Shown: in pieces, positions 40,647 through 55,242 of the stretch
How positions within the stretch are numbered: position 1 is the stretch's first letter
How the letters are laid out: each line of letters opens with the position of its first letter
From: Planctomycetota bacterium
Lineage (GTDB): Bacteria > Planctomycetota > PLA2 > JAEUHO01
Length of the DNA stretch: 64,000 bases
Direction: 5' to 3'
Assembly: GCA_030065025.1 (NCBI GenBank)
Contig: JASJDY010000015.1
Span: forward strand, 2,281-66,280
The notes under the pieces: generated by a model
Told to the model about the DNA's origin: nothing
Seen by the model: only the letters and a program-made list of their open reading frames with translations
Database searches by the model: none
Position numbers and translations under genes: made by a program

Positions 40647-43600
40647 TCAGCGGCCCTCGTTCCAAGCCGTGAGGGCCCGGCAGTAGCCCTGACCCTCTGC
40701 ATAGCTCGGATGGCCTGCGCGGATGCCGCTGTCGAAGCCGACGCGCTGAAGCCACGCGTCCGCGGCCGTCATGGTCGCTGCGATCGATGACGGGTCATGG
40801 CCCGCGCCGACGTTCAGCTTCGCGCCGATGAGCGACCACGCCACGAGCATGGACATGTCCACCTGGACAGCAGTCCGCGCGGCACTGCGCCCGTAGCGAG
40901 AGGCCTGGATGAGATTGCCGTGGTCGAGAATGGCCCGCGCCTCGGCCTGTGTGTAGGTCGTGCCGCCGAGCAGGATGCTCGTGAGCGGCCAGGCAGAGGT
41001 GTTCGTCCCCCACCAGCCGCAGACGTTGCGTGCGCCACCGGCCGCTCCCAGGAAGCCGAAGTCCAGATCGAAGTTGTCGGCCGTGATGGTGGCCGAGGCG
41101 TTCGTGCCCGCTCCGGTGCTCGTCAGCCCGACGAGCGGTCCTCCCGTCTGGAAGTTCGACGGATCGATCTCCACGCGGTAGTCGCCTGCCGGAACGAAGA
41201 AGCGGTACTCACCGGCCGCGTTGGTCGTGTCTGTGCCCACGACCGCACCGGATCCGTCCCGCATCACGACCAGCACGCCCGGGATGGGTCGCTCGCCGAG
41301 CGCAGGCTCGTACACGCCGTCCCGATCGGAGTCGAGCCAGATGACGTCGCCCACGGTGTAGAGCACGAGGGCGTAGCCGAAGTCGGCATCGTCGACGTCC
41401 TGTCCACCGGCAAGCGCGACGTCGCGCGGCTCGGAGCCGCCGGTCAGCGTCAGGTCGGGCGGGAGCGTGCTCTCGCGGACGTCGAGGCGGTAGAGCCCGG
41501 GCGGCAAGCCCGTTACGTCGTAGCTGCCATCGGCCGCCGTGGTGACGCTGCCCTGCGGGTCGTCGTCGGCCGTACCGAACACGCCGTCCGGGCCGGCCTC
41601 GATCACATCGATCGTCACGCCGCCGATGCCCGGCTCGCCGGCGTCCTGAACGCCGTCCTCGTCCGTGTCGTTCCACACGCGATCGCCGATGGATCCCGTG
41701 AACTGATAGCCGACGTCCACGTCCAGGCGGTCCTCGCTCGGCGCAAGCGTGACGTCCAGTGGCTGGTTGGCGGACGTGAGCACCAGGCCTGCCGGCAGCG
41801 TGCCCACATCGACGAGCATCCGGTAGGAGCCGGCGGGCAGGCCTTCGAAGAGGTAGTCGCCGCCTGCGCCGGTCGTGCGGCTGCCGACAGCGACGTCGTC
41901 GGCGGTTCCCAGCACCGTGTCCGGCCCCGCTTCGGTCAGCAGGACGGTCACGCCAGCCAGACCGGGCTCACCCGGATCCTGCGTGCCGTCGAAGTCCACG
42001 TCCTGCCAGATGCGATCACCGATCGACCCCGCGAAGCGGTAGCCGACGTCGAGGTCGTTCCGCTGCTCGCCCGTCCCCAGCGTGACGTCGAGCGGCAACG
42101 CAGCGCTGGTGCGCTCCATGCCCAGCGGGAGCGTGCTCGGATCAACGTCCACGCGGTAGAGGCCGGGAGGCAAGTTGGTGTAGCCGTAGTCACCGTCGCC
42201 GCTCGTCACGGCGTCGGGCAGGAGCACGTCATCCGCGGTGCCCAGCGTGCCGTCGGGCCCCGCTTCGCGCAGCCGGACGGTCACGCCGTTCAGCCCCGGC
42301 TCGCCGACGTCCTGGACGCCATCTCCGTCGAGGTCGTTCCAGATGCGATCGCCGATGGCACCCGCGTACTGGAAGCCGAAGTCGGCGAGCGCAGATCCCC
42401 CGCCGGCGGCCAAGGGCACGTCGAGCGGATCGTTCGAGGTCGTCAGGATCATGCCGGCGGGTGCAGTCGACACGTCGACGTCCACGCGGTAGAGACCCGC
42501 AGGGAGTCCGGCGAACAGATACGCCCCGTCCGCGCCTGTGACCGCATCCGGGAAGGTCACATCATCGGCCGTGCCGAACGCACCGTCGGGGCCCGCCTCG
42601 AGCAGCACCACGGTGACGCCCGTGAGGCCCGGCTCGCCGGGGTCCTGCACGCCGTCCCGGTCCACATCGCGCCAGACGCGATCGCCGATGGCACCGACGC
42701 GACGGAAGCCGAAATCGGCAGTCGTGACGACCTGGCCCGGGCTCAAGGGCACGCCCAGGAGCCCGCCGCCGGTCGTCGGCACGTAGCCAGCGGGGAGGCT
42801 CGCGCCGTCCACGATGACGCAGTAGTCCGCGGGCGGCAGCCCCTCGACGGCGTAGAGCCCGCCCCCGGAGGTCGTAGCGGCGGTCTGCGGGCCATCGTCG
42901 GCGGTGCCGCACACGCCGTCCGGGCCGCGGGTACCCACGAGCACCGTGATGCCGTCGAGCCCCGGCTCGCCGGGATCCTGGACGCCGTCGCCGTCGAGGT
43001 CGTCCCACACGCGATCACCGATGCGGCCGCTGTGACGGAAGCCGAAGTCCACGGTCGTGAAGACGTCGCCTGCGTTCACGGTGACGTCCAGCGGATCGGT
43101 GGTGGTGGCCGCCATGCCCGCCGGCACGGTCCCGTCGCTGACGTCGATCCGGTAGAGGCCCGGGGGCAGACCGGTGAAGCCATAGTCACCGTCACCGGCC
43201 GTCACCTGCGCGCCGACGCTGACGTCGTCCGCCGTGCCGAGCACGCCGTCGGAGCCTGCCTCGGTCAGGTTCACGGTCGCGCCGTTGATCCCCGGCTCAC
43301 CCGGGTCCTGGATGCCGTCGGCGTCCAGGTCCTCCCACACGCGGTCACCGAGCGATCCCGCAAGCCAGTAGCCGAAGTCGAACGTCGTGACGTCCTCGCC
43401 GGCGGCGATCGTCACGTCACGCGGATCGGGGGTCGTACCTGCGTACCCCGCAGGCAACGACGCGTCGTTCACGTCGACGCGATAGAGCCCCGCAGCGAGG
43501 TCCGCGAACAGGTAGGCTCCGCCGGCTCCGGTCGTCGTGGAGCCGAGTGCGATGTCGTCTGCGGTGCCCAGCGTTCCGTCGGCGCCGGCGCCGGTCAGCG

Positions 43601-46600
43601 TCAGATCGACGCCGCTCAGCCCGGGCTCACCGGGGTCCTGGGTCCCATCGCCGTCGACGTCGTCCCAGACGCGATCGCCGATGGAGGCGGGAGCCCAGAA
43701 GCCGAAGTCGGCGTCGGCGAACGTCTCGCCCAGCGCGAGCGACCGATCCAGAGGATCGTTGGCGGTGCTCGAGACCAGACCCGCGGGCAGCGTTCCGTCG
43801 CTGACGTCGACGCGGTAGAGGCCCGCCGAGAGGCCGGTGAAGGCGTAGTCGCCGTCCCCCGCGGTCACCTGCGAGCCGCCGGGGACGTCGTCGGCGGTGC
43901 CGAAGGCCCCGTCCGGGCCGGCCTCGGTGAGAACCACCGTGACGCCGTTGAGTCCGGGCTCTCCGCCGTCCTGGACGCCGTCGCCGTTCGTGTCGAGCCA
44001 GACGCGGTCGCCCAGGCTCCCTCCGATCACGTAGCCGAAGTCGGCGTCGTCGTAGTCCTGACGCGGCCCGAGCACGACGTCGGCGGGCTCGTTCCCCGTC
44101 GTGAGCGAGGCGCCTGCGGGCAGGGTGCTCTCCAGCACGTCGACCCGATACAGTCCGGAAGCGAGGCCGGGGAAGTCGTACGCGCCGCTGGCCGTCGTCG
44201 TCGTCGTGAACAGGCTCACGTCGTCTGCTGTGCCCAGGACGTCGTCCGGTCCCGCCTCGGTCAGCTGCAGCTGAACGCCACCCAGGCCACTGTCGCCGGC
44301 ATCATCGACGCCATTGCCGTTCGCGTCGTTCCAGACGCGATCCCCGATCGAGGCGTCGTCCGCGGCGTAGCCGAAGTCCACGGTGGTGTCGTTCGTGCCC
44401 GTGGGCAGCGCGACGTCCAGGGGCTCGTTGCCGGACGTGAGACTGGTGAGGCCCGGAGGCAGGGTCGACGCATCGACGCTCACGCGGTAGCTGCCGGATA
44501 CGAGCCCTGGGAACGTGTAGAGACCGCCGGCGTCCGTGACCTGCGGCGGAAAACCGACATCGTCGGCGGTGCCCAGGGTGCCGTCCGGTCCGGCCTCCAC
44601 GAGAGTCAGCGTCACGCCGGGGATGCCCAGCTCCCCGCCGTCCTGGATGCCGTCCGTGTTGTCGTCGTTCCAGACGCGGTCACCGAGCGACGCGTTGCCG
44701 ACGAAACCGAAGTCCGCATCTCGCAGGGTCTGCCCCTGGCGCAGGTTGAGACGCAGCTCCGTCGTGAAGGTGGTGAGCGTCGCGCCCGTAGGCACGTCCG
44801 TCACGTCGACCGTGACGGAGTAGGAGCCGGCAGGGAGATTCCCGAACTCGTACGACCCGTCGGCCGCCGTCGTCGTCGTGCCGGCCGTCACGTCATCCGC
44901 CGTACCGAAGTAGCCGTCGGGGCCGGGCTGCGTGAGCGTCAGATCGACATTGGCTAGACCGGGCTCGCCTGCATCCACGACGCCGTCGGCGTCGACGTCC
45001 AGCCAGACGAGATCGCCGATCCGGCCGGGGTAGACGTAACCGAAGTCGCCGTCGAGATCGTTGCTCCCGGCGGTGATCGTCGCGGCGTACGGCTCGTTGG
45101 CCGTGGTCAGCGTCGCACCCGGGGGCAGCGTGGACTCGTCCACGTCGACGCAATAGGGACCGTCCGAGAGGCCGGAGAACAGATAGTAGCCCCCACCATC
45201 GGTCGTCGTGGTCGCCTGGAACACGTCGTCGGCTGTGCCGCACAGGCCATCGAGCCCGGGATCGTAGAGATCGACCTTGATCCCACGCAGCCCTGGCTCC
45301 GTCGGGCCCTGCAAGCCGTCGCTGTCGGCGTCGAAGAAGACCGTGTCGCCGAGCGTGGCGACGGCGCCGGTCTTGACGAAGTCGAGGCCATTCACGGTGT
45401 TGCCGAAGCCCGTCACGCTCACGGGCTGGACGTTGGCCTGGGTGAGAACGAAGTCGGCGGGCAGGGTCGACGTGTCGAGCGTGATCACGTAGTCGCCGGT
45501 GGAGGCCACACCGAAGCAGTAGTCGCCCGAGGCGTCGGTCACGGTGCTGACCAGGGCCGGGTCGAGATCGGCGTCGAGCACGTCGTTGTCGTCGAGGTCG
45601 CGCCAGAGCACGACCGTGACACCGCTGACGCCCAGCTCGCCCGGATCCTGGATGCCGTTGCCGTTGTCATCGCACCAGACGCGGCCACAGAACTCGTTCA
45701 GATCGGCGGTCAGGAATGCCATGGACTCGAAGTCGCTTCCGCCGACCGTCAGGCTGCGACGATCGAACGCCTCGCCGGTGACGCGGTTGATCGAGAAGAC
45801 GGCATTGTTGTTGCTCGAGCCGTCGGCCGCGGTGTTGCTGCCGCTACCCGTGACGCCCCACATGGTGGCGTCGTTGTAGAAGGCGAAGCCCTCCATGTCG
45901 TTGACGCCGAGCGCCCCGACGTCGGATGCGACGCCGGTAGCCTTGTCGATGCGCACGAGGCGATCGGCGAGCCCACCGCCGTTCGCGATGCCGTAGAGTT
46001 GTCCGTCGTAGGGATCGATGGCGATGTCGTCGATGTCGAGGTTGCCCGGCTCGACAGGCGGCACGCGGAAGTAGTCGTACGAGCTGCCGCCGATGGAGAA
46101 GGCGCCACGCACGATATGGCCCGTCCCGGTGTCGAAGATGAACAGCGCGTCTGCGCCACCGATGCGGGCCACACCGTAGGCGACACCGGTGTTCGGATCG
46201 AAGGCCACGCTGTCGATGTCGCTGAAGCTGTTCGGCGCGAGCGACTCCGGCGCCCTGCTCGCAGAGAGCCCGACCAAGTTGGCCGTGTTGCCGTCGTTCC
46301 ACACGTCCGTCGTGACGCTCTGCGTCCACACGCCGGTCGTCAGACTGATGGTGCCCAAGCGGTCGTTGTTGAAGGCATACAGTGTGTCGCTGCCGGGCCA
46401 GAACGCCGAGCCCTCGATGTTGTTCGTTCCTGTCCCAGCACCGATCGCGGTCTGCGCGTTCTGCGGAACGGGGAGGGTGATGTCGACGCTGAACAGGCGG
46501 TCGTTGCCTCCCCCGCCCCCGCCGGCGTCGGCAATGACGTACCAGACCGGTGTGCTCAGGGCAGAGGGACCGCCGGCACCGGGCGCCTCGACGGGGAGCC

Positions 46601-46724
46601 TCGACTCGCTTGCGCCCCCACAGCCGCCTACGGCGAGCATGACGGCGAACAGAAGGCCAGCAAGGGTAGTGAGACGCACGGAGGTCCTCCCTGGCCCGAG
46701 CGTTCGGGGCGCAGGGGTGCCCAT
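40647..46724 (-). CDS. Giant surface lipoprotein/adhesin (about 2025 aa): an N-terminal beta-propeller-like region, about 20 tandem SdrD/Cna-B-type repeats, and a C-terminal domain of unknown function.
   Basis: It has a signal peptide with a lipobox (LLFAVMLAVGGC). Units of about 95 aa recur (GDRVW.D.[DN].DG.QD.GE.G..GVTV.L...G.DG..GTADD). The ORF-track N-terminal extension overlaps the divergent porin gene and was rejected. Confidence 0.7.
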   Translation of the reverse strand: MGTPAPRTLGPGRTSVRLTTLAGLLFAVMLAVGGCGGASESRLPVEAPGAGGPSALSTPVWYVIADAGGGGGGNDRLFSVDITLPVPQNAQTAIGAGTGTNNIEGSAFWPGSDTLYAFNNDRLGTISLTTGVWTQSVTTDVWNDGNTANLVGLSASRAPESLAPNSFSDIDSVAFDPNTGVAYGVARIGGADALFIFDTGTGHIVRGAFSIGGSSYDYFRVPPVEPGNLDIDDIAIDPYDGQLYGIANGGGLADRLVRIDKATGVASDVGALGVNDMEGFAFYNDATMWGVTGSGSNTAADGSSNNNAVFSINRVTGEAFDRRSLTVGGSDFESMAFLTADLNEFCGRVWCDDNGNGIQDPGELGVSGVTVVLWRDLDDNDVLDADLDPALVSTVTDASGDYCFGVASTGDYVITLDTSTLPADFVLTQANVQPVSVTGFGNTVNGLDFVKTGAVATLGDTVFFDADSDGLQGPTEPGLRGIKVDLYDPGLDGLCGTADDVFQATTTTDGGGYYLFSGLSDGPYCVDVDESTLPPGATLTTANEPYAATITAGSNDLDGDFGYVYPGRIGDLVWLDVDADGVVDAGEPGLANVDLTLTQPGPDGYFGTADDVTAGTTTTAADGSYEFGNLPAGSYSVTVDVTDVPTGATLTTFTTELRLNLRQGQTLRDADFGFVGNASLGDRVWNDDNTDGIQDGGELGIPGVTLTLVEAGPDGTLGTADDVGFPPQVTDAGGLYTFPGLVSGSYRVSVDASTLPPGLTSLTSGNEPLDVALPTGTNDTTVDFGYAADDASIGDRVWNDANGNGVDDAGDSGLGGVQLQLTEAGPDDVLGTADDVSLFTTTTTASGAYDFPGLASGLYRVDVLESTLPAGASLTTGNEPADVVLGPRQDYDDADFGYVIGGSLGDRVWLDTNGDGVQDGGEPGLNGVTVVLTEAGPDGAFGTADDVPGGSQVTAGDGDYAFTGLSAGLYRVDVSDGTLPAGLVSSTANDPLDRSLALGETFADADFGFWAPASIGDRVWDDVDGDGTQDPGEPGLSGVDLTLTGAGADGTLGTADDIALGSTTTGAGGAYLFADLAAGLYRVDVNDASLPAGYAGTTPDPRDVTIAAGEDVTTFDFGYWLAGSLGDRVWEDLDADGIQDPGEPGINGATVNLTEAGSDGVLGTADDVSVGAQVTAGDGDYGFTGLPPGLYRIDVSDGTVPAGMAATTTDPLDVTVNAGDVFTTVDFGFRHSGRIGDRVWDDLDGDGVQDPGEPGLDGITVLVGTRGPDGVCGTADDGPQTAATTSGGGLYAVEGLPPADYCVIVDGASLPAGYVPTTGGGLLGVPLSPGQVVTTADFGFRRVGAIGDRVWRDVDRDGVQDPGEPGLTGVTVVLLEAGPDGAFGTADDVTFPDAVTGADGAYLFAGLPAGLYRVDVDVSTAPAGMILTTSNDPLDVPLAAGGGSALADFGFQYAGAIGDRIWNDLDGDGVQDVGEPGLNGVTVRLREAGPDGTLGTADDVLLPDAVTSGDGDYGYTNLPPGLYRVDVDPSTLPLGMERTSAALPLDVTLGTGEQRNDLDVGYRFAGSIGDRIWQDVDFDGTQDPGEPGLAGVTVLLTEAGPDTVLGTADDVAVGSRTTGAGGDYLFEGLPAGSYRMLVDVGTLPAGLVLTSANQPLDVTLAPSEDRLDVDVGYQFTGSIGDRVWNDTDEDGVQDAGEPGIGGVTIDVIEAGPDGVFGTADDDPQGSVTTAADGSYDVTGLPPGLYRLDVRESTLPPDLTLTGGSEPRDVALAGGQDVDDADFGYALVLYTVGDVIWLDSDRDGVYEPALGERPIPGVLVVMRDGSGAVVGTDTTNAAGEYRFFVPAGDYRVEIDPSNFQTGGPLVGLTSTGAGTNASATITADNFDLDFGFLGAAGGARNVCGWWGTNTSAWPLTSILLGGTTYTQAEARAILDHGNLIQASRYGRSAARTAVQVDMSMLVAWSLIGAKLNVGAGHDPSSIAATMTAADAWLQRVGFDSGIRAGHPSYAEGQGYCRALTAWNEGR

Positions 46725-46887
46725 GCGAGGCCCAGCCGGTGCGTACGTATCGGCGGATCCGGGCGGCATCTGCACCGCCAACCGGCATTCGCTTGCCGGA
46801 TTGCCCTCGGTTCTCCGATTCGGCCGTTTCTGCACGCTCAAGCGGCCGAGGGACCCACCGATCCACACGAACAGGAGGCAGATCCCC

Positions 46888-48441
46888 ATGCGCATCGCAG
46901 CTGCAGCCCTCGCGTTGGTGCTCGCCGCCCCCGTCGCGGCCCAGGGCCAGGAGAAGACGCTGCCGCCTCCGCAGGTGATCCGGCGGGGAGCGCCGGTGCC
47001 TGCCGCGCCCGTCACCACGCCGCCCGCCCCGCTGGCTGCGCCCCGCGAGGCCGCGCCACCGACGCCGCCTCTCCCCCCGGCGCCACTGCCTCCCCAGCCG
47101 CCTGCCCTGCCGGCAACCCAGCCGCCCGAGCTACCGCCGGCCGTGCCCGCGCCGCCCATGTGGGGTGGTGCCGGAGCGGCACCGTCCGCGCCGCGCAGCG
47201 TGCTGGATACCGACACGCGCATCCTGATTCCTGCCGAGGACGTGGCCGGCACAGCAGGCTATGACGACGGCTTCCTGATCCGCGGCTCGGGCTTCAGCCT
47301 GCGTATCAACCTGCTCCTCCAGGCGCGCTTCGAAGCGTTCGAGTGGAACGACGAGGCTCCGACGCCCGGCGGCAACCGCTCCGGGTTCTCGGTACCGCGC
47401 GCGGGCGTTCGCTTCTCCGGCACGGCACCGTGCAGCATGAACTACCTGCTCGAGCTCGAGTTCGGCAACGAGGGAGGTCCGCTCGCGTACGACGACCTGG
47501 ACGACTGCATCGGGTGCACGAACAACAACCTCGGCCCCGACTCCCAGTCGCGTGAGTACGACCCGCTGCGTGAAGCATGGATCGAGTATGCGCCGAGCCG
47601 CGCTCTGCGCGCGCGCGTCGGCCTGCTTCGTACACCGGCCACGAGGCAGCTCATGACGCGGCCCGAGCTCCAGCAATTCGTGGACATCTCGCTCGCCTCG
47701 GCGTGGACGGGTCTCGGCATGCCGGGCTACACGGACCGCAACCGCGACTTCGGCCTGATGCTCCACGGTCAGGTGGGATCCAGTGATCAGGTCGGCTGGA
47801 TCTTCACCGTCACGAACGGGGATGGCGGCGACGGCATCCGCAACGTGCTCGACCGCCGCTCCTCGGACAACCTGGCGTTCGGCGCGCGCGTCAACTGGGC
47901 GTTCGAGCAGCCGCTGGGCTACCAGGAGGGCGCGCTGCGCCAGATGACGAATCGCTGGTACGGCGAGGTCGGCGCCTGGGTCTTCTACTACGCCGACCGC
48001 ACCGATCGGCCGCATGTCACGGAGGGTGACTACCTGCGCGGCGGTATCGACTTGGCACTCGGGTACGGACCGTGGTCGTTCACGGGCGCACTCACCTGGA
48101 CGGATGATCAGGACGTCGGTGGAACGAGCGACGACACGAGCACGGCGTGGCTCGCGCAAGTTGGCCACCACTTCGTGGGGACGGCTTTCGAGGTTGCTGC
48201 CCGGTGGAGCGGATACGACACCGAAGGGGACCTGACCGGCGACGGCAAGGCCCAGGAGGTGGGCGCCGCCATCAACTACTACCTGAACGGCCACGGGAAC
48301 AAGGTGCAGGTGGACGTCGCGTACATCGACACGGACAGCGGCGGCTTCCTGATCCTCGACCCGTATCCCGCCTACCCGGCGTTTCTCGGGAACGGCGACT
48401 CGGGCTGGCTGTTCCGCGTCCAGTGGCAGCTCGCCCTGTAG
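46888..48441 (+). CDS. Phosphate-selective porin O/P (OprO/OprP)-like outer-membrane beta-barrel with a Pro-rich N-terminal linker.
   Basis: It has a signal peptide (MRIAAAALALVLAAPVAAQG) with an AGGAGG RBS 8 nt upstream. A Pro/Ala-rich linker follows, then alternating beta-strand sequence that ends in an aromatic residue pattern (FRVQWQLAL). Confidence 0.65.
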   Translation: MRIAAAALALVLAAPVAAQGQEKTLPPPQVIRRGAPVPAAPVTTPPAPLAAPREAAPPTPPLPPAPLPPQPPALPATQPPELPPAVPAPPMWGGAGAAPSAPRSVLDTDTRILIPAEDVAGTAGYDDGFLIRGSGFSLRINLLLQARFEAFEWNDEAPTPGGNRSGFSVPRAGVRFSGTAPCSMNYLLELEFGNEGGPLAYDDLDDCIGCTNNNLGPDSQSREYDPLREAWIEYAPSRALRARVGLLRTPATRQLMTRPELQQFVDISLASAWTGLGMPGYTDRNRDFGLMLHGQVGSSDQVGWIFTVTNGDGGDGIRNVLDRRSSDNLAFGARVNWAFEQPLGYQEGALRQMTNRWYGEVGAWVFYYADRTDRPHVTEGDYLRGGIDLALGYGPWSFTGALTWTDDQDVGGTSDDTSTAWLAQVGHHFVGTAFEVAARWSGYDTEGDLTGDGKAQEVGAAINYYLNGHGNKVQVDVAYIDTDSGGFLILDPYPAYPAFLGNGDSGWLFRVQWQLAL

Positions 48442-50928: not shown

Positions 50929-51885
50929 TCAGAACCACTTCCTTCGGCGGAAGGCGTACAACATCACGCCGGCGATCGCGCCCATCGACAGGAGCGTCAG
51001 CCAGAACGAGAGCGGACTGGTCAGCGGCCCGATGTCGCCGAAGTTGTTCATCCCGAAGATGCCCGCCAGCAGCGAGAGCGGCATCATCACCGTCGCGATG
51101 ATCGTGAGCGTCCGCATGATCTCGCTGAGGCGGTTGTTCACCACCGCCAGGTAGGCGTCACGTGTCACGGACAAGCCGTCACGGGCCGATTCCAGCAGCT
51201 CGAAGACGCGCAGCACGTGGTCGTAGACGTCGCGCATGTACGGCACGACCTCCGCCCGGATCGCAGCATGGGGAATGCGGCACAGCGAGCCGCACACGTC
51301 GCGCTGACTGCGCGTCACGCGCGCGAGGCCGATCACACGGCGGCGCATGCGCAGGATCGCCTCCATGCTCGACGGCGTGGGATCGCTCAGTACCCGGTCC
51401 TCGAGCTTGGTCATGTCCTCGAGGACCTCGGTCGTCAGGCTCTCGAAGCCCGCGGTCATGTGATCGATGACGACGTGGGCCAGCGCATCGGGCGAGGGGA
51501 TCAGGTGCTCGGGCGCCTGCTCGACGCGAGCCGCGATCTCGTCCATCGCGTCGGACTCCGTCGTCTGGATCGTGACGATCCACATCTTGCCCAGGAACAC
51601 AGCGATGCGGCGCGTCTGCGTGAAGGCCTTCTTGACCGGCGTGTGCACGATGAAGAAGAGGTAGTCGTCGTAGTCGTCGATCTTGGGCGGGAGGTCCTCG
51701 TCGAGCGCGTCGCGCACCGCGAGCGGATGCAGCTTCATCTGGTCGCAGAGCGCATCGATCTCTTCCTGCGTGGGCGCGATGGCCGAGATCCAGTCGGGCT
51801 CGGGTACAGCCAGTGCATCGCGCAGGGCGTCGGTTCCCTCGCGCATGAGCAGCTTGCCGTCACGCATGCTACGGACCCGGATCAT
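50929..51885 (-). CDS. corA: CorA-family Mg2+/Co2+ transporter.
   Basis: It has two C-terminal TM helices with the GMN motif (LLAGIFGMNNF) and an N-terminal cytoplasmic domain. Confidence 0.8.
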   Translation of the reverse strand: MIRVRSMRDGKLLMREGTDALRDALAVPEPDWISAIAPTQEEIDALCDQMKLHPLAVRDALDEDLPPKIDDYDDYLFFIVHTPVKKAFTQTRRIAVFLGKMWIVTIQTTESDAMDEIAARVEQAPEHLIPSPDALAHVVIDHMTAGFESLTTEVLEDMTKLEDRVLSDPTPSSMEAILRMRRRVIGLARVTRSQRDVCGSLCRIPHAAIRAEVVPYMRDVYDHVLRVFELLESARDGLSVTRDAYLAVVNNRLSEIMRTLTIIATVMMPLSLLAGIFGMNNFGDIGPLTSPLSFWLTLLSMGAIAGVMLYAFRRRKWF

Positions 51886-51930: not shown

Positions 51931-53460
51931 TCAGGAGACGAAGTCGACGGTTCCGTCCTCAGACACGACGACGGCTAGACACGGCACTTCGCTGGCATGC
52001 ACGTAGCGCAGCGCCGAGTTGTAGCGTGCGCCGCGAGCCGGATTGGCCTTCGTCGAGGCCTGACCGTCCAGGATCACACTGAACGCGTGCACGGTGGCCG
52101 ACGGATCCGCGAGGAGCGCACCGTCGACGGCCGTCAGCGCGAGCACGCCGGCCTCGTCGATCTGCGTCGGCGTGATGCGTGCGGACTGCTGGGCGAGCCG
52201 CTGCGCCTCGGACACGGCGTTCTCCGAGATGACGAGCAACGTCCCGTGCTCCTGCCGCGTGGCGGCCTCGGCGAGGGCCCACAGCGACTCGACCTGCTCC
52301 CGCGGCAAGTCACCGAACACCCGCCCCACCAGCTCCGCGAACACATCGCGCCGGAGAGAGGCCTCGGGCAGGCGCGGATGCCCGTAGCTCACACGCATGA
52401 GCGGCCGTAGGCCGTACGCGAGCTCCCACGTGTAGTGCTGGAGGAAGCCGACGTTGAAGAGGTTGCGGTCGGGGATCGAGGACATGAGGTTCTCGTGGCC
52501 CAGACCGTAGATCGTGTTGCCGTCGCTCAGCAGGCTGTAGCCCGGCTGGTGCGTCTCGAGCAGCTTGCGCACGGCCACGTGATCGCTCATCGGCACGGGC
52601 CGCTGGAACCGGACCTTGCAGACGATGGCGTCATGCTCCGGGACCGAGATCAGGATCTGCCCGCGGCTGCTCTGCCCCTCGTAGCGCAGCGACGAGATGG
52701 TGTTGGCCGCGTGCCACAGCCCGCGCAGGTTCAGGTCGCGCTGGGCGCCGAGCGCGGGCGCGTCGGTGACGAGGCGACCCGCCGCTCGCAGGATCTCCTC
52801 CGGATCTGCATCCACCATCGAAGCCGAGAGTCCGGAGTGGTGCTCGGCCATGCCGACGATGCAGCGGCGCATGAACTGCTCGACGGTCGCGTCCAGGAGC
52901 GACTCCGGCCGGCGCTCGCGACGATCGATGTCGTTCTTGCGCAGCGCGTAGCGCGACTTCCATGCGCCGCGGTTGAGCCGCAGCACGGTGCAGACGAGGA
53001 ACTCCTTCACCGGCCTCGGCGAGGAACAGAACGAGATCACGTCACGTTCCTTGTCGCTGGCCTCGAGCGCCTCCTCCACGGCCCGCCGCCAAGCCTCGAG
53101 CACGATGGTGCGCTTGGTATCACCCTCCGGCTTCTTGCCCTCGTCCTTCTTCGCGTCCTTGTAGAGCTCCTTGCGGATGGCCTTCGCCCGGCGCGAGGCC
53201 TCGGTGAAGAGGGTCGACGACGACTCCCCGCCCTGGGTGTCGAGGAACAGCGGGTACACGCCGTCCTCGTGGTCCGCGACGAGGCCGAGCAGCAGGACCT
53301 CAGGCTGCAGTCGCGGATCGAGCTCCTCGAAGATCGCCGACGCGAGGGTCTGGATCTCCGTGCGGAAGGCCGACTGGCTGCCCCAGTGCGAGGGGATGAT
53401 GCGGCTCATCGCAGGGGCCTCCGGTGGCGCGCGCAGATTGGGAACATCGGTAGGCGACAC
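51931..53460 (-). CDS. Protein with a C-terminal diadenylate cyclase (DAC/DisA_N)-like domain carrying a variant catalytic motif (DGA present; RHR replaced by RYN) and an N-terminal domain of unknown function of about 370 aa.
   Basis: The C-terminus reads HGTLLVIS...VDGALLADPSATVHAFSVIL...ARGARYNSALRYVHASEVPCLAVVVSEDGTVDFVS. It aligns motif by motif with the DAC consensus GALIVI...DGAIII...GTRHRAA.GISE.TDA.VVVVSEETG.IS. Confidence 0.55.
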   Translation of the reverse strand: MSPTDVPNLRAPPEAPAMSRIIPSHWGSQSAFRTEIQTLASAIFEELDPRLQPEVLLLGLVADHEDGVYPLFLDTQGGESSSTLFTEASRRAKAIRKELYKDAKKDEGKKPEGDTKRTIVLEAWRRAVEEALEASDKERDVISFCSSPRPVKEFLVCTVLRLNRGAWKSRYALRKNDIDRRERRPESLLDATVEQFMRRCIVGMAEHHSGLSASMVDADPEEILRAAGRLVTDAPALGAQRDLNLRGLWHAANTISSLRYEGQSSRGQILISVPEHDAIVCKVRFQRPVPMSDHVAVRKLLETHQPGYSLLSDGNTIYGLGHENLMSSIPDRNLFNVGFLQHYTWELAYGLRPLMRVSYGHPRLPEASLRRDVFAELVGRVFGDLPREQVESLWALAEAATRQEHGTLLVISENAVSEAQRLAQQSARITPTQIDEAGVLALTAVDGALLADPSATVHAFSVILDGQASTKANPARGARYNSALRYVHASEVPCLAVVVSEDGTVDFVS

Positions 53461-53537: not shown

Positions 53538-54158
53538 TCAGGCGGCCTTGCCCGGCTTCAGCCAGCCGAGGACGGTCTGCCAGAAGGTGCGGGGACCGAC
53601 CTCGTCGTCATCCTCGTCCTCGGGCTCGGGCGGCGCGACGGACAGCGTGCAACGCTCCTCGCGAACCGCCGGCACACCCGCAGGCACCTGATCGACGGGC
53701 GCCTCGGCGCGATCTTCCTCGCGCTCCCCCAGCGCCTCCTCGGGCACGGGACCGCCGCGACCGCGGAAGCGGCCCAGGAGACGGATCATCTCCTCGCGGC
53801 GACGCAGCCCCTCGGTGATCACGCGCTCGAGCACCTCACGATCCACCGGCTTGTTCAGGTAGTCGTAGGCACCGGCCTCGAGCGCGGCCGCGATGCCGTC
53901 GCTCTCGTCGACCGAGCTCAGGATGACGATGGGTGTGCGGCCCTTGAGGTAGGGCAACGCACGATCAAGCAGCTGGAAGCCGTTGAGCTTCGGCATCATC
54001 ACGTCGGTGAAGATGAGATCGAAATCGCGCTCATGGAGGCGCTCCAGTGCCTCGATGCCGTTGCCGGCCTCGATGCAGCGGTGCCCCATGTCGCTCAGTT
54101 GGCGGGCCAGCGTGTCGCGGACCGCGGATTCGTCGTCGACGACCAGGATGTGCGCCAT
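53538..54158 (-). CDS. Single-domain response regulator (CheY-like receiver) with an acidic, disordered C-terminal tail of about 85 aa.
   Basis: It reads MAHILVVDDE...DLIFTDVMMP...YLNKP, so the phospho-acceptor Asp and the conserved Lys are present. The start was set at the internal Met. The upstream part of the ORF is Ser/Arg-rich and not protein-like. Confidence 0.7.
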   Translation of the reverse strand: MAHILVVDDESAVRDTLARQLSDMGHRCIEAGNGIEALERLHERDFDLIFTDVMMPKLNGFQLLDRALPYLKGRTPIVILSSVDESDGIAAALEAGAYDYLNKPVDREVLERVITEGLRRREEMIRLLGRFRGRGGPVPEEALGEREEDRAEAPVDQVPAGVPAVREERCTLSVAPPEPEDEDDDEVGPRTFWQTVLGWLKPGKAA

Positions 54159-54276: not shown

Positions 54277-55242
54277 TCACTCAGGACGCGGCGGGGGTTG
54301 CCCGAGCCGCCACGGGGCCCGCTTCCAGCGCCAGAACGACAGCAGCAGCTCGGTGACGGACACGAACCGATAGGCGAACAGGTTGCGATAGCTCCGCACC
54401 TGAGGCCTGAGGAAGGACCGGACCGAGCCGTAGAAGCCGCGGCGGTAGATTCGCTGGATGGTGCGCCCGTAGTCGCCCAGCACGTCGTTCCAGACGATGC
54501 GACCGACGAAGCGGACGGTCGCCCCCGCCCCCACGACGCCGCCCTTGAGGATGTTGCCCGCGCTACGCATGGTGCCGAGAGCGACCGCGCCCGTGGTCTC
54601 GAGCAGGGAGTGGTTCGCGTCACGTGCCAGTCCGGTGAGCTCGTCCGCCAGCCCGTCGACATCCGCGGCGGCCAGCGCGGCTGCGCCGCCGGCCTTCATC
54701 TCCGCGCCGATGCCCTCGATGGTCTGCTTCATGTCCGCCACCGAGAGCGGCGGCATGTCGACGGTGTCGGACAGCTTGTCGGAGAGTCGACCGAGGCCGG
54801 ACAGCACCTCGTCGAGGGAGTCCAGCCGGGAGCCCTCTTCCATGACGCCGGCCTTCTTCAGCTCGCCGGCGAGCTCGCGCATGTACGTCTGCGCACCCTT
54901 GCTCACGTCGGAGGCCGCCAGCAGGATCCACAGGGGCGACGCGTGGAGCCCGACCATCATGAGGTTGTCGACGGCGCCGCCCACGGCCATGCGCTTGGCG
55001 GAATCTGCATCCAACGCCTGCGCTCCGGGGAAGAGGCCCGCCATGCCGACGTCGTCCGTGAGCATCTTGATCTGCCGCTCGACCGCCAGCTTGTAGAACT
55101 TGCCCTCGCGCAGCGGACGGGGCAGCAGGCGCGTGAGCGCGTGTCCCAGGAGGCCCAGGAGCGTCACCAGCCAGCGCAGCAGGCGCTCCGGCAGGGAGAG
55201 CGTGAAGGCCAGCAGGTGATGCGGGTGTAGGGGGCGTCGCAT
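54277..55242 (-). CDS. Hypothetical protein (321 aa).
   Basis: Its composition is protein-like after the chosen start MRRPLHPHHLLAF. It is co-directional with its neighbours. No family assignment was made. Confidence 0.45.
   Translation of the reverse strand: MRRPLHPHHLLAFTLSLPERLLRWLVTLLGLLGHALTRLLPRPLREGKFYKLAVERQIKMLTDDVGMAGLFPGAQALDADSAKRMAVGGAVDNLMMVGLHASPLWILLAASDVSKGAQTYMRELAGELKKAGVMEEGSRLDSLDEVLSGLGRLSDKLSDTVDMPPLSVADMKQTIEGIGAEMKAGGAAALAAADVDGLADELTGLARDANHSLLETTGAVALGTMRSAGNILKGGVVGAGATVRFVGRIVWNDVLGDYGRTIQRIYRRGFYGSVRSFLRPQVRSYRNLFAYRFVSVTELLLSFWRWKRAPWRLGQPPPRPE

Follow-up and report, generated by a model that had tools for sequence, protein, structure and literature searches.

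A planctomycete gene with an R-Y-N loop in place of Arg-His-Arg is predicted to encode a diadenylate cyclase of the CdaG family

[quoted passage not shown] The gene lies on the minus strand of a 64,000-nt stretch of the Planctomycetota contig JASJDY010000015.1, referred to throughout as the window. A first-pass annotation, made from the letters of the window, treated the substitution as a peculiarity of this one gene and proposed an altered-specificity cyclase, a c-di-AMP-binding pseudo-enzyme or an uncharacterised signalling output. The reading favoured here, with a probability of roughly 75%, is that the gene encodes a predicted active diadenylate cyclase of the CdaG family, that is, a c-di-AMP synthase.

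The open reading frame (ORF), as listed, spans 51931..53460 on the minus strand and gives 509 aa from a GTG at 53460, but this is a formal extension of the frame. The cyclase likely starts instead at the ATG at 53409, which yields a short-form CdaG protein of 492 aa (51931..53409, minus strand). This ATG carries GGAGG 7 nt to its 5' side, its product begins with MSRIIPSHWG, which is the N-terminus of all the orthologs, and an identical 492-aa protein is annotated by NCBI as 'MAG: diadenylate cyclase [Planctomycetota bacterium]'. The GC content at third codon positions of the ORF (GC3 of 0.91) is typical of real genes in this window of ~70% GC. An Rfam scan of the window returned neither a c-di-AMP riboswitch nor any other family.

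According to their Pfam matches, three domains follow one another along the protein, each above its curated cut-off and in the order that is found in CdaG. These are DACNG (PF21752, E 2.5e-44) at residues 9-213 (52720..53334), DACNH (PF21750, E 4.1e-25) at residues 230-331 (52366..52671) and DAC (PF02457, E 4.2e-9) at residues 381-488 (51946..52269), all of them in the 492-aa numbering and on the minus strand; in the 509-aa ORF the same matches fall at residues 26-230, 247-348 and 398-505, respectively. The N-terminal ~350 aa, previously described as an unknown domain of ~370 aa, are therefore the named pair DACNG and DACNH, and with this pair the architecture becomes that of CdaG/DS-2C. The assignment of the C-terminus to the DAC (DisA_N) domain held, as ~110 aa match PF02457 with 36.5 bits (gathering score 27) over positions 5-111 of the 119 in the profile. 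The arrangement DACNG-DACNH-DAC corresponds to the CdaG family of Galperin 2023 (J Bacteriol), as that work is cited in bioRxiv 10.64898/2026.08.10.743972 and PMC13092281, and CdaG proteins are named DS-2C when they are found in a CBASS-variant defence operon (PMC13092281). The window protein aligns over its full length to hundreds of members of this family, with which it shares the three domains, their order and the invariant residues, including R-[Y/F]-N-S-A. Earlier work has already covered this architecture, the names of its domains, the family and the c-di-AMP activity (PF21752/PF21750; Galperin 2023, to the extent cited in the two sources above; DefensePredictor 2026; and two preprints of August 2026).

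CdaG proteins differ in length at their C-terminal end. Long members, of ~575-590 aa, carry a C-terminal helical extension, whereas the window protein ends 6 residues past its VVVSEDG motif and has no such extension. In an alignment of 49 sequences the extension, of ~90 aa, is confined to the long forms, and a C-terminal helix bundle has been mentioned for CdaG proteins (bioRxiv 10.64898/2026.08.10.743972). A full-HMM search without a word index, run over 1.84 billion cluster representatives, returned 1393 clusters at E<=1e-30, and among the best 150 of these 1393 representatives 51 are no longer than 530 aa and 96 are at least 550 aa long. With short forms making up about a third of these best representatives, the missing C-terminal bundle marks a difference between subfamilies and does not exclude the window protein from CdaG. 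The homologs from Hymenobacter are also short (~507-525 aa), read RGARYNSA in the loop and are 36-39% identical to the window protein.

Within the DAC domain, the motifs (492-aa numbering) are HGT at residues 371-373, DGA at 412-414, ILDG at 429-432, R-G-A-R-Y-N-S-A at 442-449 and VVVSEDG at 480-486, while in the 509-aa ORF the GARYNSA motif was recorded at residue 477. A single-sequence phmmer search against the PDB sequences matched no chain, and the residue-level alignment to the DAC of B. cereus (2fb5) required a profile of the family rather than the single sequence. This profile sets G-A-R-Y-N-S-A opposite G-T-R-H-R-A-A, DGA opposite DGA, HGTLLVI opposite HGALIVV and VVVSED opposite LVVSEE, and the AVDGALL of the window protein aligns to the hDGAVL of 2fb5. 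Both the motif-by-motif correspondence with DAC domains and the replacement of RHR by RYN, proposed in the first-pass annotation, are confirmed by this alignment. The R-Y-N codons occupy 52063..52071 on the minus strand. The canonical RHR is therefore absent from the window protein, which retains only its first Arg. Canonical DACs (DisA, CdaA/DacA, CdaS and CdaM) have the same catalytic fold and the motifs HG[AT]L[IV]V, DGA and VVSE[ED] in common with it, but the window protein differs from them in R-Y-N for RHR and in its accessory domains, and it lacks both transmembrane helices and a HhH.

The conservation of the loop across homologs shows whether R-Y-N is an accident of one gene. In a first set of 121 homologs collected with phmmer, GARYNSA is present in 102 and R-[Y/F]-N in 120, and the sole exception is a misaligned or truncated sequence. 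The best 150 of the 1393 representatives give the same picture, with 118 RYN, 31 RFN and one truncated sequence (R-[Y/F]-N in 149/150). The 49-sequence alignment, whose members are 34-84% identical, shows no variation at G, R, N, S and A of the RGARYNSA loop or at the Arg residues that flank it; G-T, the D and G of DGA, ILDG and S-x-D-G are likewise invariant. The window protein has every one of the columns that are invariant across these 49 diverse members, including R-G-x-R-x-N-S-A-x-R-Y, and it carries the CdaG signature R-G-[AS]-R-[YF]-N-S-A. Loci recovered in a scan of genome contigs were excluded from this evidence, because RGAR[YF]NSA was itself the search pattern of that scan. The position is thus conserved rather than simply variable among orthologs, and the idea of a substitution peculiar to one gene gives way to a family-wide R-[Y/F]-N. 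Such conservation points to strong purifying selection acting on the predicted active-site loop, and R-[Y/F]-N-S-A, not RHR, is the loop by which a putative CdaG active site is diagnosed.

Structure prediction agrees with the assignment of the C-terminal domain. An AlphaFold2 model built from the 49-sequence alignment (pLDDT 84.5, pTM 0.79) has a C-terminus with the DAC fold, for which the 25 best PDB matches found by Foldseek are all DacA, CdaA, DisA or CdaM (E 8.5e-6 to 1.6e-3, probability 1.00), at an identity of only 13-20%. The DACNG domain is modelled as a mixed helix/strand domain, and the PDB fold search of the full model gave no significant match outside the DAC region. When DACNH was modelled alone (pLDDT 82), its 8 best PDB matches were all DAC enzymes, although these matches are weak (E 0.03-0.2, TM ~0.5, 8-10% identity), and hhalign found no similarity between DACNH and the family's own DAC domain. 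DACNH has been remarked to be a distant, motif-less relative of DAC (bioRxiv 10.64898/2026.08.10.743972), a remark with which the fold search agrees weakly. Judging from the models, DACNH is probably a degenerate DAC-like fold that lacks the DGA and RHR-type motifs.

From the perspective of activity, a degenerate RHR could mean that the window protein is a dead pseudo-cyclase that serves as a receptor for c-di-AMP or ATP. Replacing RHR by AAA leaves DisA from M. tuberculosis inactive and unable to bind ATP (PMC3328451), and since two of the three RHR residues are replaced in the window protein, some compensation would be needed there. Nevertheless, the substitution is family-wide and does not look like the decay of one copy, the Asp of DGA and other catalytic-loop residues are invariant, and members of the same motif class have been reported to make c-di-AMP. 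In particular, the DS-2C proteins of Hymenobacter wooponensis and Hymenobacter elongatus produced c-di-AMP as detected by LC-MS (Kranzusch-lab preprint, bioRxiv 10.64898/2026.08.10.743927). A homolog from H. wooponensis that reads RGARYNSA is 37% identical to the window protein (best tblastn segment); it comes from the same species as one of the assayed proteins but is not established as the same protein, and many Hymenobacter genomes carry two CdaG paralogs. Defence by the E. coli DS-2C is reported to be abolished by each of two changes to predicted catalytic residues of the DAC, which the strain table of that study gives as D433A and R468A (DefensePredictor, PMC13092281). The corresponding protein, WP_001593457.1, was recovered from a complete E. 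coli genome; it has the architecture and the DGA and RYN motifs of the window protein, with which it shares 31% identity over 488 aa (E 1e-77), reads RGSRYNSG in the loop, and its D433 is the Asp of DGA. R468 could not be mapped in the same way, because position 468 of WP_001593457.1 holds the Asn of RYN, with the closest Arg residues at 466 and 473. A receptor-only role for the window protein is therefore regarded as very improbable, and the window cyclase, which retains all the family-invariant residues, is for that reason most likely active. As a whole, these observations make RYN the normal, selection-maintained loop of an active family.

The replaced loop might alternatively have changed the product, so that the window protein would be a cyclase of altered specificity, with 3'3'-cUA or some other mixed dinucleotide as a conceivable product. 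DAC domains are able to synthesise 3'3'-cUA, as in the case of PanS (bioRxiv 10.64898/2026.08.10.743927), and the nucleotide-binding loop of CdaG does differ from that of canonical DACs, but the DS-2C proteins that were assayed gave c-di-AMP and not cUA. Moreover, the loop of the window protein equals the family consensus and offers no clade-specific departure from which a new specificity might be suspected; this alternative appears quite improbable. It also follows from the family-wide occurrence of RYN that motif-based calls of 'degenerate DAC' on CdaG proteins are wrong.

If the window protein is the c-di-AMP synthase that is favoured here, its C-terminal DAC domain would face a second DAC domain head to head, as in other DACs, and would convert two ATP into 3'3'-c-di-AMP. 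The phosphate-binding loop would then be R-G-A-R-[Y/F]-N-S-A instead of G-T-R-H-R-A-A, with the first Arg kept, and the lost His and Arg might be compensated by the invariant Arg 3 positions upstream and by the Arg of NSAxRY. The most likely role of the DACNG domain and of the DAC-like, motif-less DACNH would be to regulate the catalytic domain or to serve as its scaffold. The context of the gene, described below, suggests that such an enzyme would most likely be a chromosomal, non-defence source of c-di-AMP, and the adjacent single-domain response regulator may conceivably modulate it.

The relatives in enterobacteria raise the further question of whether the window gene belongs to an anti-phage system of the DS-2 type (CBASS-associated), as the DAC component does in E. 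coli. The E. coli gene, the third of its DS-2 system, lies behind patatin and nucleotidyltransferase (CD-NTase) genes and adjoins a canonical CapV-DncV-Cap2-Cap3 CBASS, and a Citrobacter plasmid carries a patatin-SMODS-DAC operon with the same motif (loci L095 and L093, respectively). The three-domain architecture and the motif are common to the window protein and the E. coli DS-2C, the only NCBIfam match of the former is DS2_3_antiphage (NF053872, E 1e-125), and one long-form relative sits in a mobile, defence-like island. However, the NF053872 score of 419.9 bits lies below the equivalog cut-off of 630, and the match covers positions 6-486 of the 576 in the profile, so that the last ~90 positions are missing; the E. 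coli protein, at 581 aa, has the C-terminal helical extension that the window protein lacks. PADLOC v2 (2023), which has no model for this protein, gave no match, and the genes scanned in the window from 36 kb to its end at 64 kb include no CD-NTase, patatin, phospholipase effector or other defence gene.

The surroundings of the gene point in the same direction. In the window, the order is a giant SdrD_B adhesin, Porin_O_P, a glyoxalase, an ABC-F ATPase, CorA, CdaG and the receiver, and past the receiver it continues with a 321-aa protein for which no Pfam family was matched, sortilin/BNR-PDZ, Big_5, ApbE and Rnf/Nqr subunits. The same neighbourhood, with lineage-specific insertions, is found around orthologs at 65-83% identity, which makes it a stable core-gene locus down to 65%, and the planctomycete orthologs at 44-58% identity likewise have no CBASS neighbours. 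The short forms of Hymenobacter, a genus of the phylum Bacteroidota, make up two groups of paralogs, a single genome often encoding two such proteins, and each group has its own conserved chromosomal context; at the loci examined these contexts are non-CBASS, like that of the window, but they differ from it in having no adjacent receiver of the window type. Because of the short form, the core-gene context free of CBASS and the sub-cut-off NF053872 score, the window gene is not filed as a defence gene; it probably is not one in its organism, and membership of a DS-2-type system is considered very unlikely. More generally, the occurrence of short forms in stable core contexts without CBASS, both in Planctomycetota and in Hymenobacter, means that the 'defence-associated' label of the enterobacterial DS-2 proteins is not automatically transferable.

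The gene upstream of the cyclase (53538..54158, minus strand) encodes a single-domain response regulator of 206 aa (Pfam Response_reg, E 1.2e-25), whose acceptor Asp lies in ...LIFTDVMMP... and is followed by a C-terminal extension of ~85 aa. The first-pass annotation was right that this receiver is co-directional with the cyclase and 5' of it, but with the cyclase start placed at the ATG at 53409 the gap becomes 128 nt instead of 77. It had also noted an acidic tail: the extension is real, but it is not just acidic, as the alignment of orthologs reveals a conserved Gly/Pro-rich motif in it. These features could be taken to mean that receiver and CdaG form a dedicated two-component module, in which c-di-AMP synthesis would be switched through binding of the phosphorylated receiver to DACNG/DACNH. 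The receiver lacks an output domain but has a conserved C-terminal motif, and it is located directly upstream of CdaG in six genomes (L001, L004, L005/6, L096 and L097; 65-77% CdaG identity), among them L096, whose more distant upstream region differs. On the other hand, an opposite-strand S9/esterase-like gene parts the receiver from CdaG in L009, which at 83% is the nearest of the other relatives, and no receiver neighbour is found beside the CdaG orthologs at 58%, 55% and 44% identity. A scan for promoters and terminators over 50.7-54.4 kb found nothing informative in this respect. Furthermore, the genomes with the pair all come from a single clade in which a wider synteny is shared, and the adjacency may therefore be simple inherited gene order. 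The link between receiver and CdaG is thus modest, being modestly supported and limited to one clade, and the receiver is best described as a neighbour and a possible partner, whereas a dedicated module is unlikely.

A bolder form of this proposal, in which the short-form planctomycete CdaG would be a core, non-immune c-di-AMP synthase set by the output-less receiver through DACNG/DACNH, is likewise unlikely. Were it true, a two-component system would feed directly into c-di-AMP synthesis, and CdaG would have its first physiological role beyond phage defence. No study devoted to c-di-AMP signalling in Planctomycetota turned up in a literature search, and for regulated synthesis of c-di-AMP in this phylum the receiver-CdaG pair is a candidate that can be tested.

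On the other side of the cyclase, 45 nt past its stop codon, begins the gene of a CorA Mg2+/Co2+ channel (50929..51885, minus strand; Pfam CorA, E 1e-53; TIGR00383 198 bits, against a cut-off of 200.75). As first noted, CorA is downstream on the same strand, but the adjacency is not conserved, since the two genes are directly next to each other only in the window and in L009. In L001, L004, L005/6, L096 and L097 a porin gene follows CdaG directly, at the position that CorA has in the window, and CorA is encoded farther downstream, beyond the porin, in L001, L005/6 and L096; in L004 and L097 the DNA examined ends before any CorA gene. A functional link between CdaG and CorA through c-di-AMP and ion homeostasis was considered and rejected as unsupported, given that direct adjacency is limited to these two cases, and CorA is a syntenic neighbour only, a matter of gene order. 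Among the remaining neighbours, the giant adhesin gene also follows CdaG in L001 and L004, and L005, L096 and L097 have an S-methyltransferase gene on the upstream side of the receiver.

The association between the receiver (a single-domain response regulator) and CdaG, the window's diadenylate cyclase, is not strict among related genomes. In the closest other relative (locus L009, 83% CdaG identity), a gene for an S9/esterase-like alpha/beta-hydrolase of 421 aa (L009 1644-2909, minus strand) is inserted between the two, splitting the receiver gene from CdaG. As this insertion lies on the strand opposite to both of them, receiver and CdaG cannot constitute one obligate operon. Just upstream of the receiver gene, the window encodes a 321-aa protein that belongs to no Pfam family (54277-55242, minus strand), whose gene is conserved in that position at 65-86% identity in the ortholog loci L001, L004, L005/6, L009 and L097.

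The receiver itself carries a C-terminal extension of about 85 aa (window 53538-53800), which was aligned with its orthologs (L001 9237-9857, L004 7349-7960 and L005 7307-7915). The first-pass annotation described this tail as acidic, which it is, but it is not merely acidic: although overall identity is only 59-73%, the alignment contains a nearly invariant stretch, RGRGGPVPxEALGxR..D..EAP..Q.PAGVPA.R, and a conserved Trp close to the C-terminus. This stretch resembles a linear motif or a docking motif.

On the other side of CdaG, gene order varies among relatives. A 2201-aa SdrD_B-repeat adhesin gene and a Porin_O_P gene (window 40647-48441) are located past the ABC-F gene, as seen from CdaG, in the window, while in L001 they intervene between CdaG and CorA, and in L004 they come after CdaG, in a locus sequence that stops inside the adhesin gene, short of any CorA. 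This differing placement indicates that the region underwent local rearrangement.

In many Hymenobacter genomes (loci L018-L088) there are two CdaG paralogs, each in its own conserved chromosomal context, as exemplified by the pairs L019/L027, L028/L036, L035/L044, L050/L076 and L077/L082. The first group neighbours an HI0933-like flavoprotein, a ClC channel with CBS domains and SCO1/SenC, and the second TonB_C, DUF4442 and a MutS_V protein. Beside the Hymenobacter paralogs in these loci no CBASS genes were seen, which fits poorly with the term 'defence-island' that a 2026 preprint (bioRxiv 10.64898/2026.08.10.743927) uses for Hymenobacter DS-2C, the CdaG-type cyclase.

On the E. coli AR_0128 chromosome (L095 3069-11746), the DS-2 operon (patatin, nucleotidyltransferase and DS-2C) is directly followed by a second, canonical CBASS, composed of a cGAMP-activated phospholipase, DncV, an E2/UBC protein and Cap3, so that the cyclase gene is flanked by two CD-NTase systems. 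DefensePredictor Table S11 (PMC13092281) lists the DS-2 mutants D433A and R468A, whose positions were compared with WP_001593457.1 as encoded at L095 5001-6746. D433A agrees with the Asp of DGA, whereas R468A finds no Arg: position 468 is occupied by the Asn of RYN, with the closest Arg residues at 466 and 473.

Mobile elements also carry homologs (plasmid and phage matches H5 and H7-H12). The homolog on a Phycisphaera mikurensis plasmid (L094 5989-7815) is of the long form and has R-L-N in place of R-Y-N. The matches on Bacillus and Priestia plasmids and in Bacillus phage PHBA67-J are shorter, covering only the DACNH-DAC part. A full-length CdaG homolog with 30% identity is found on the chromosome of an archaeon, Methanobrevibacter sp. 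DSM 116169 (L072 8001-9449).
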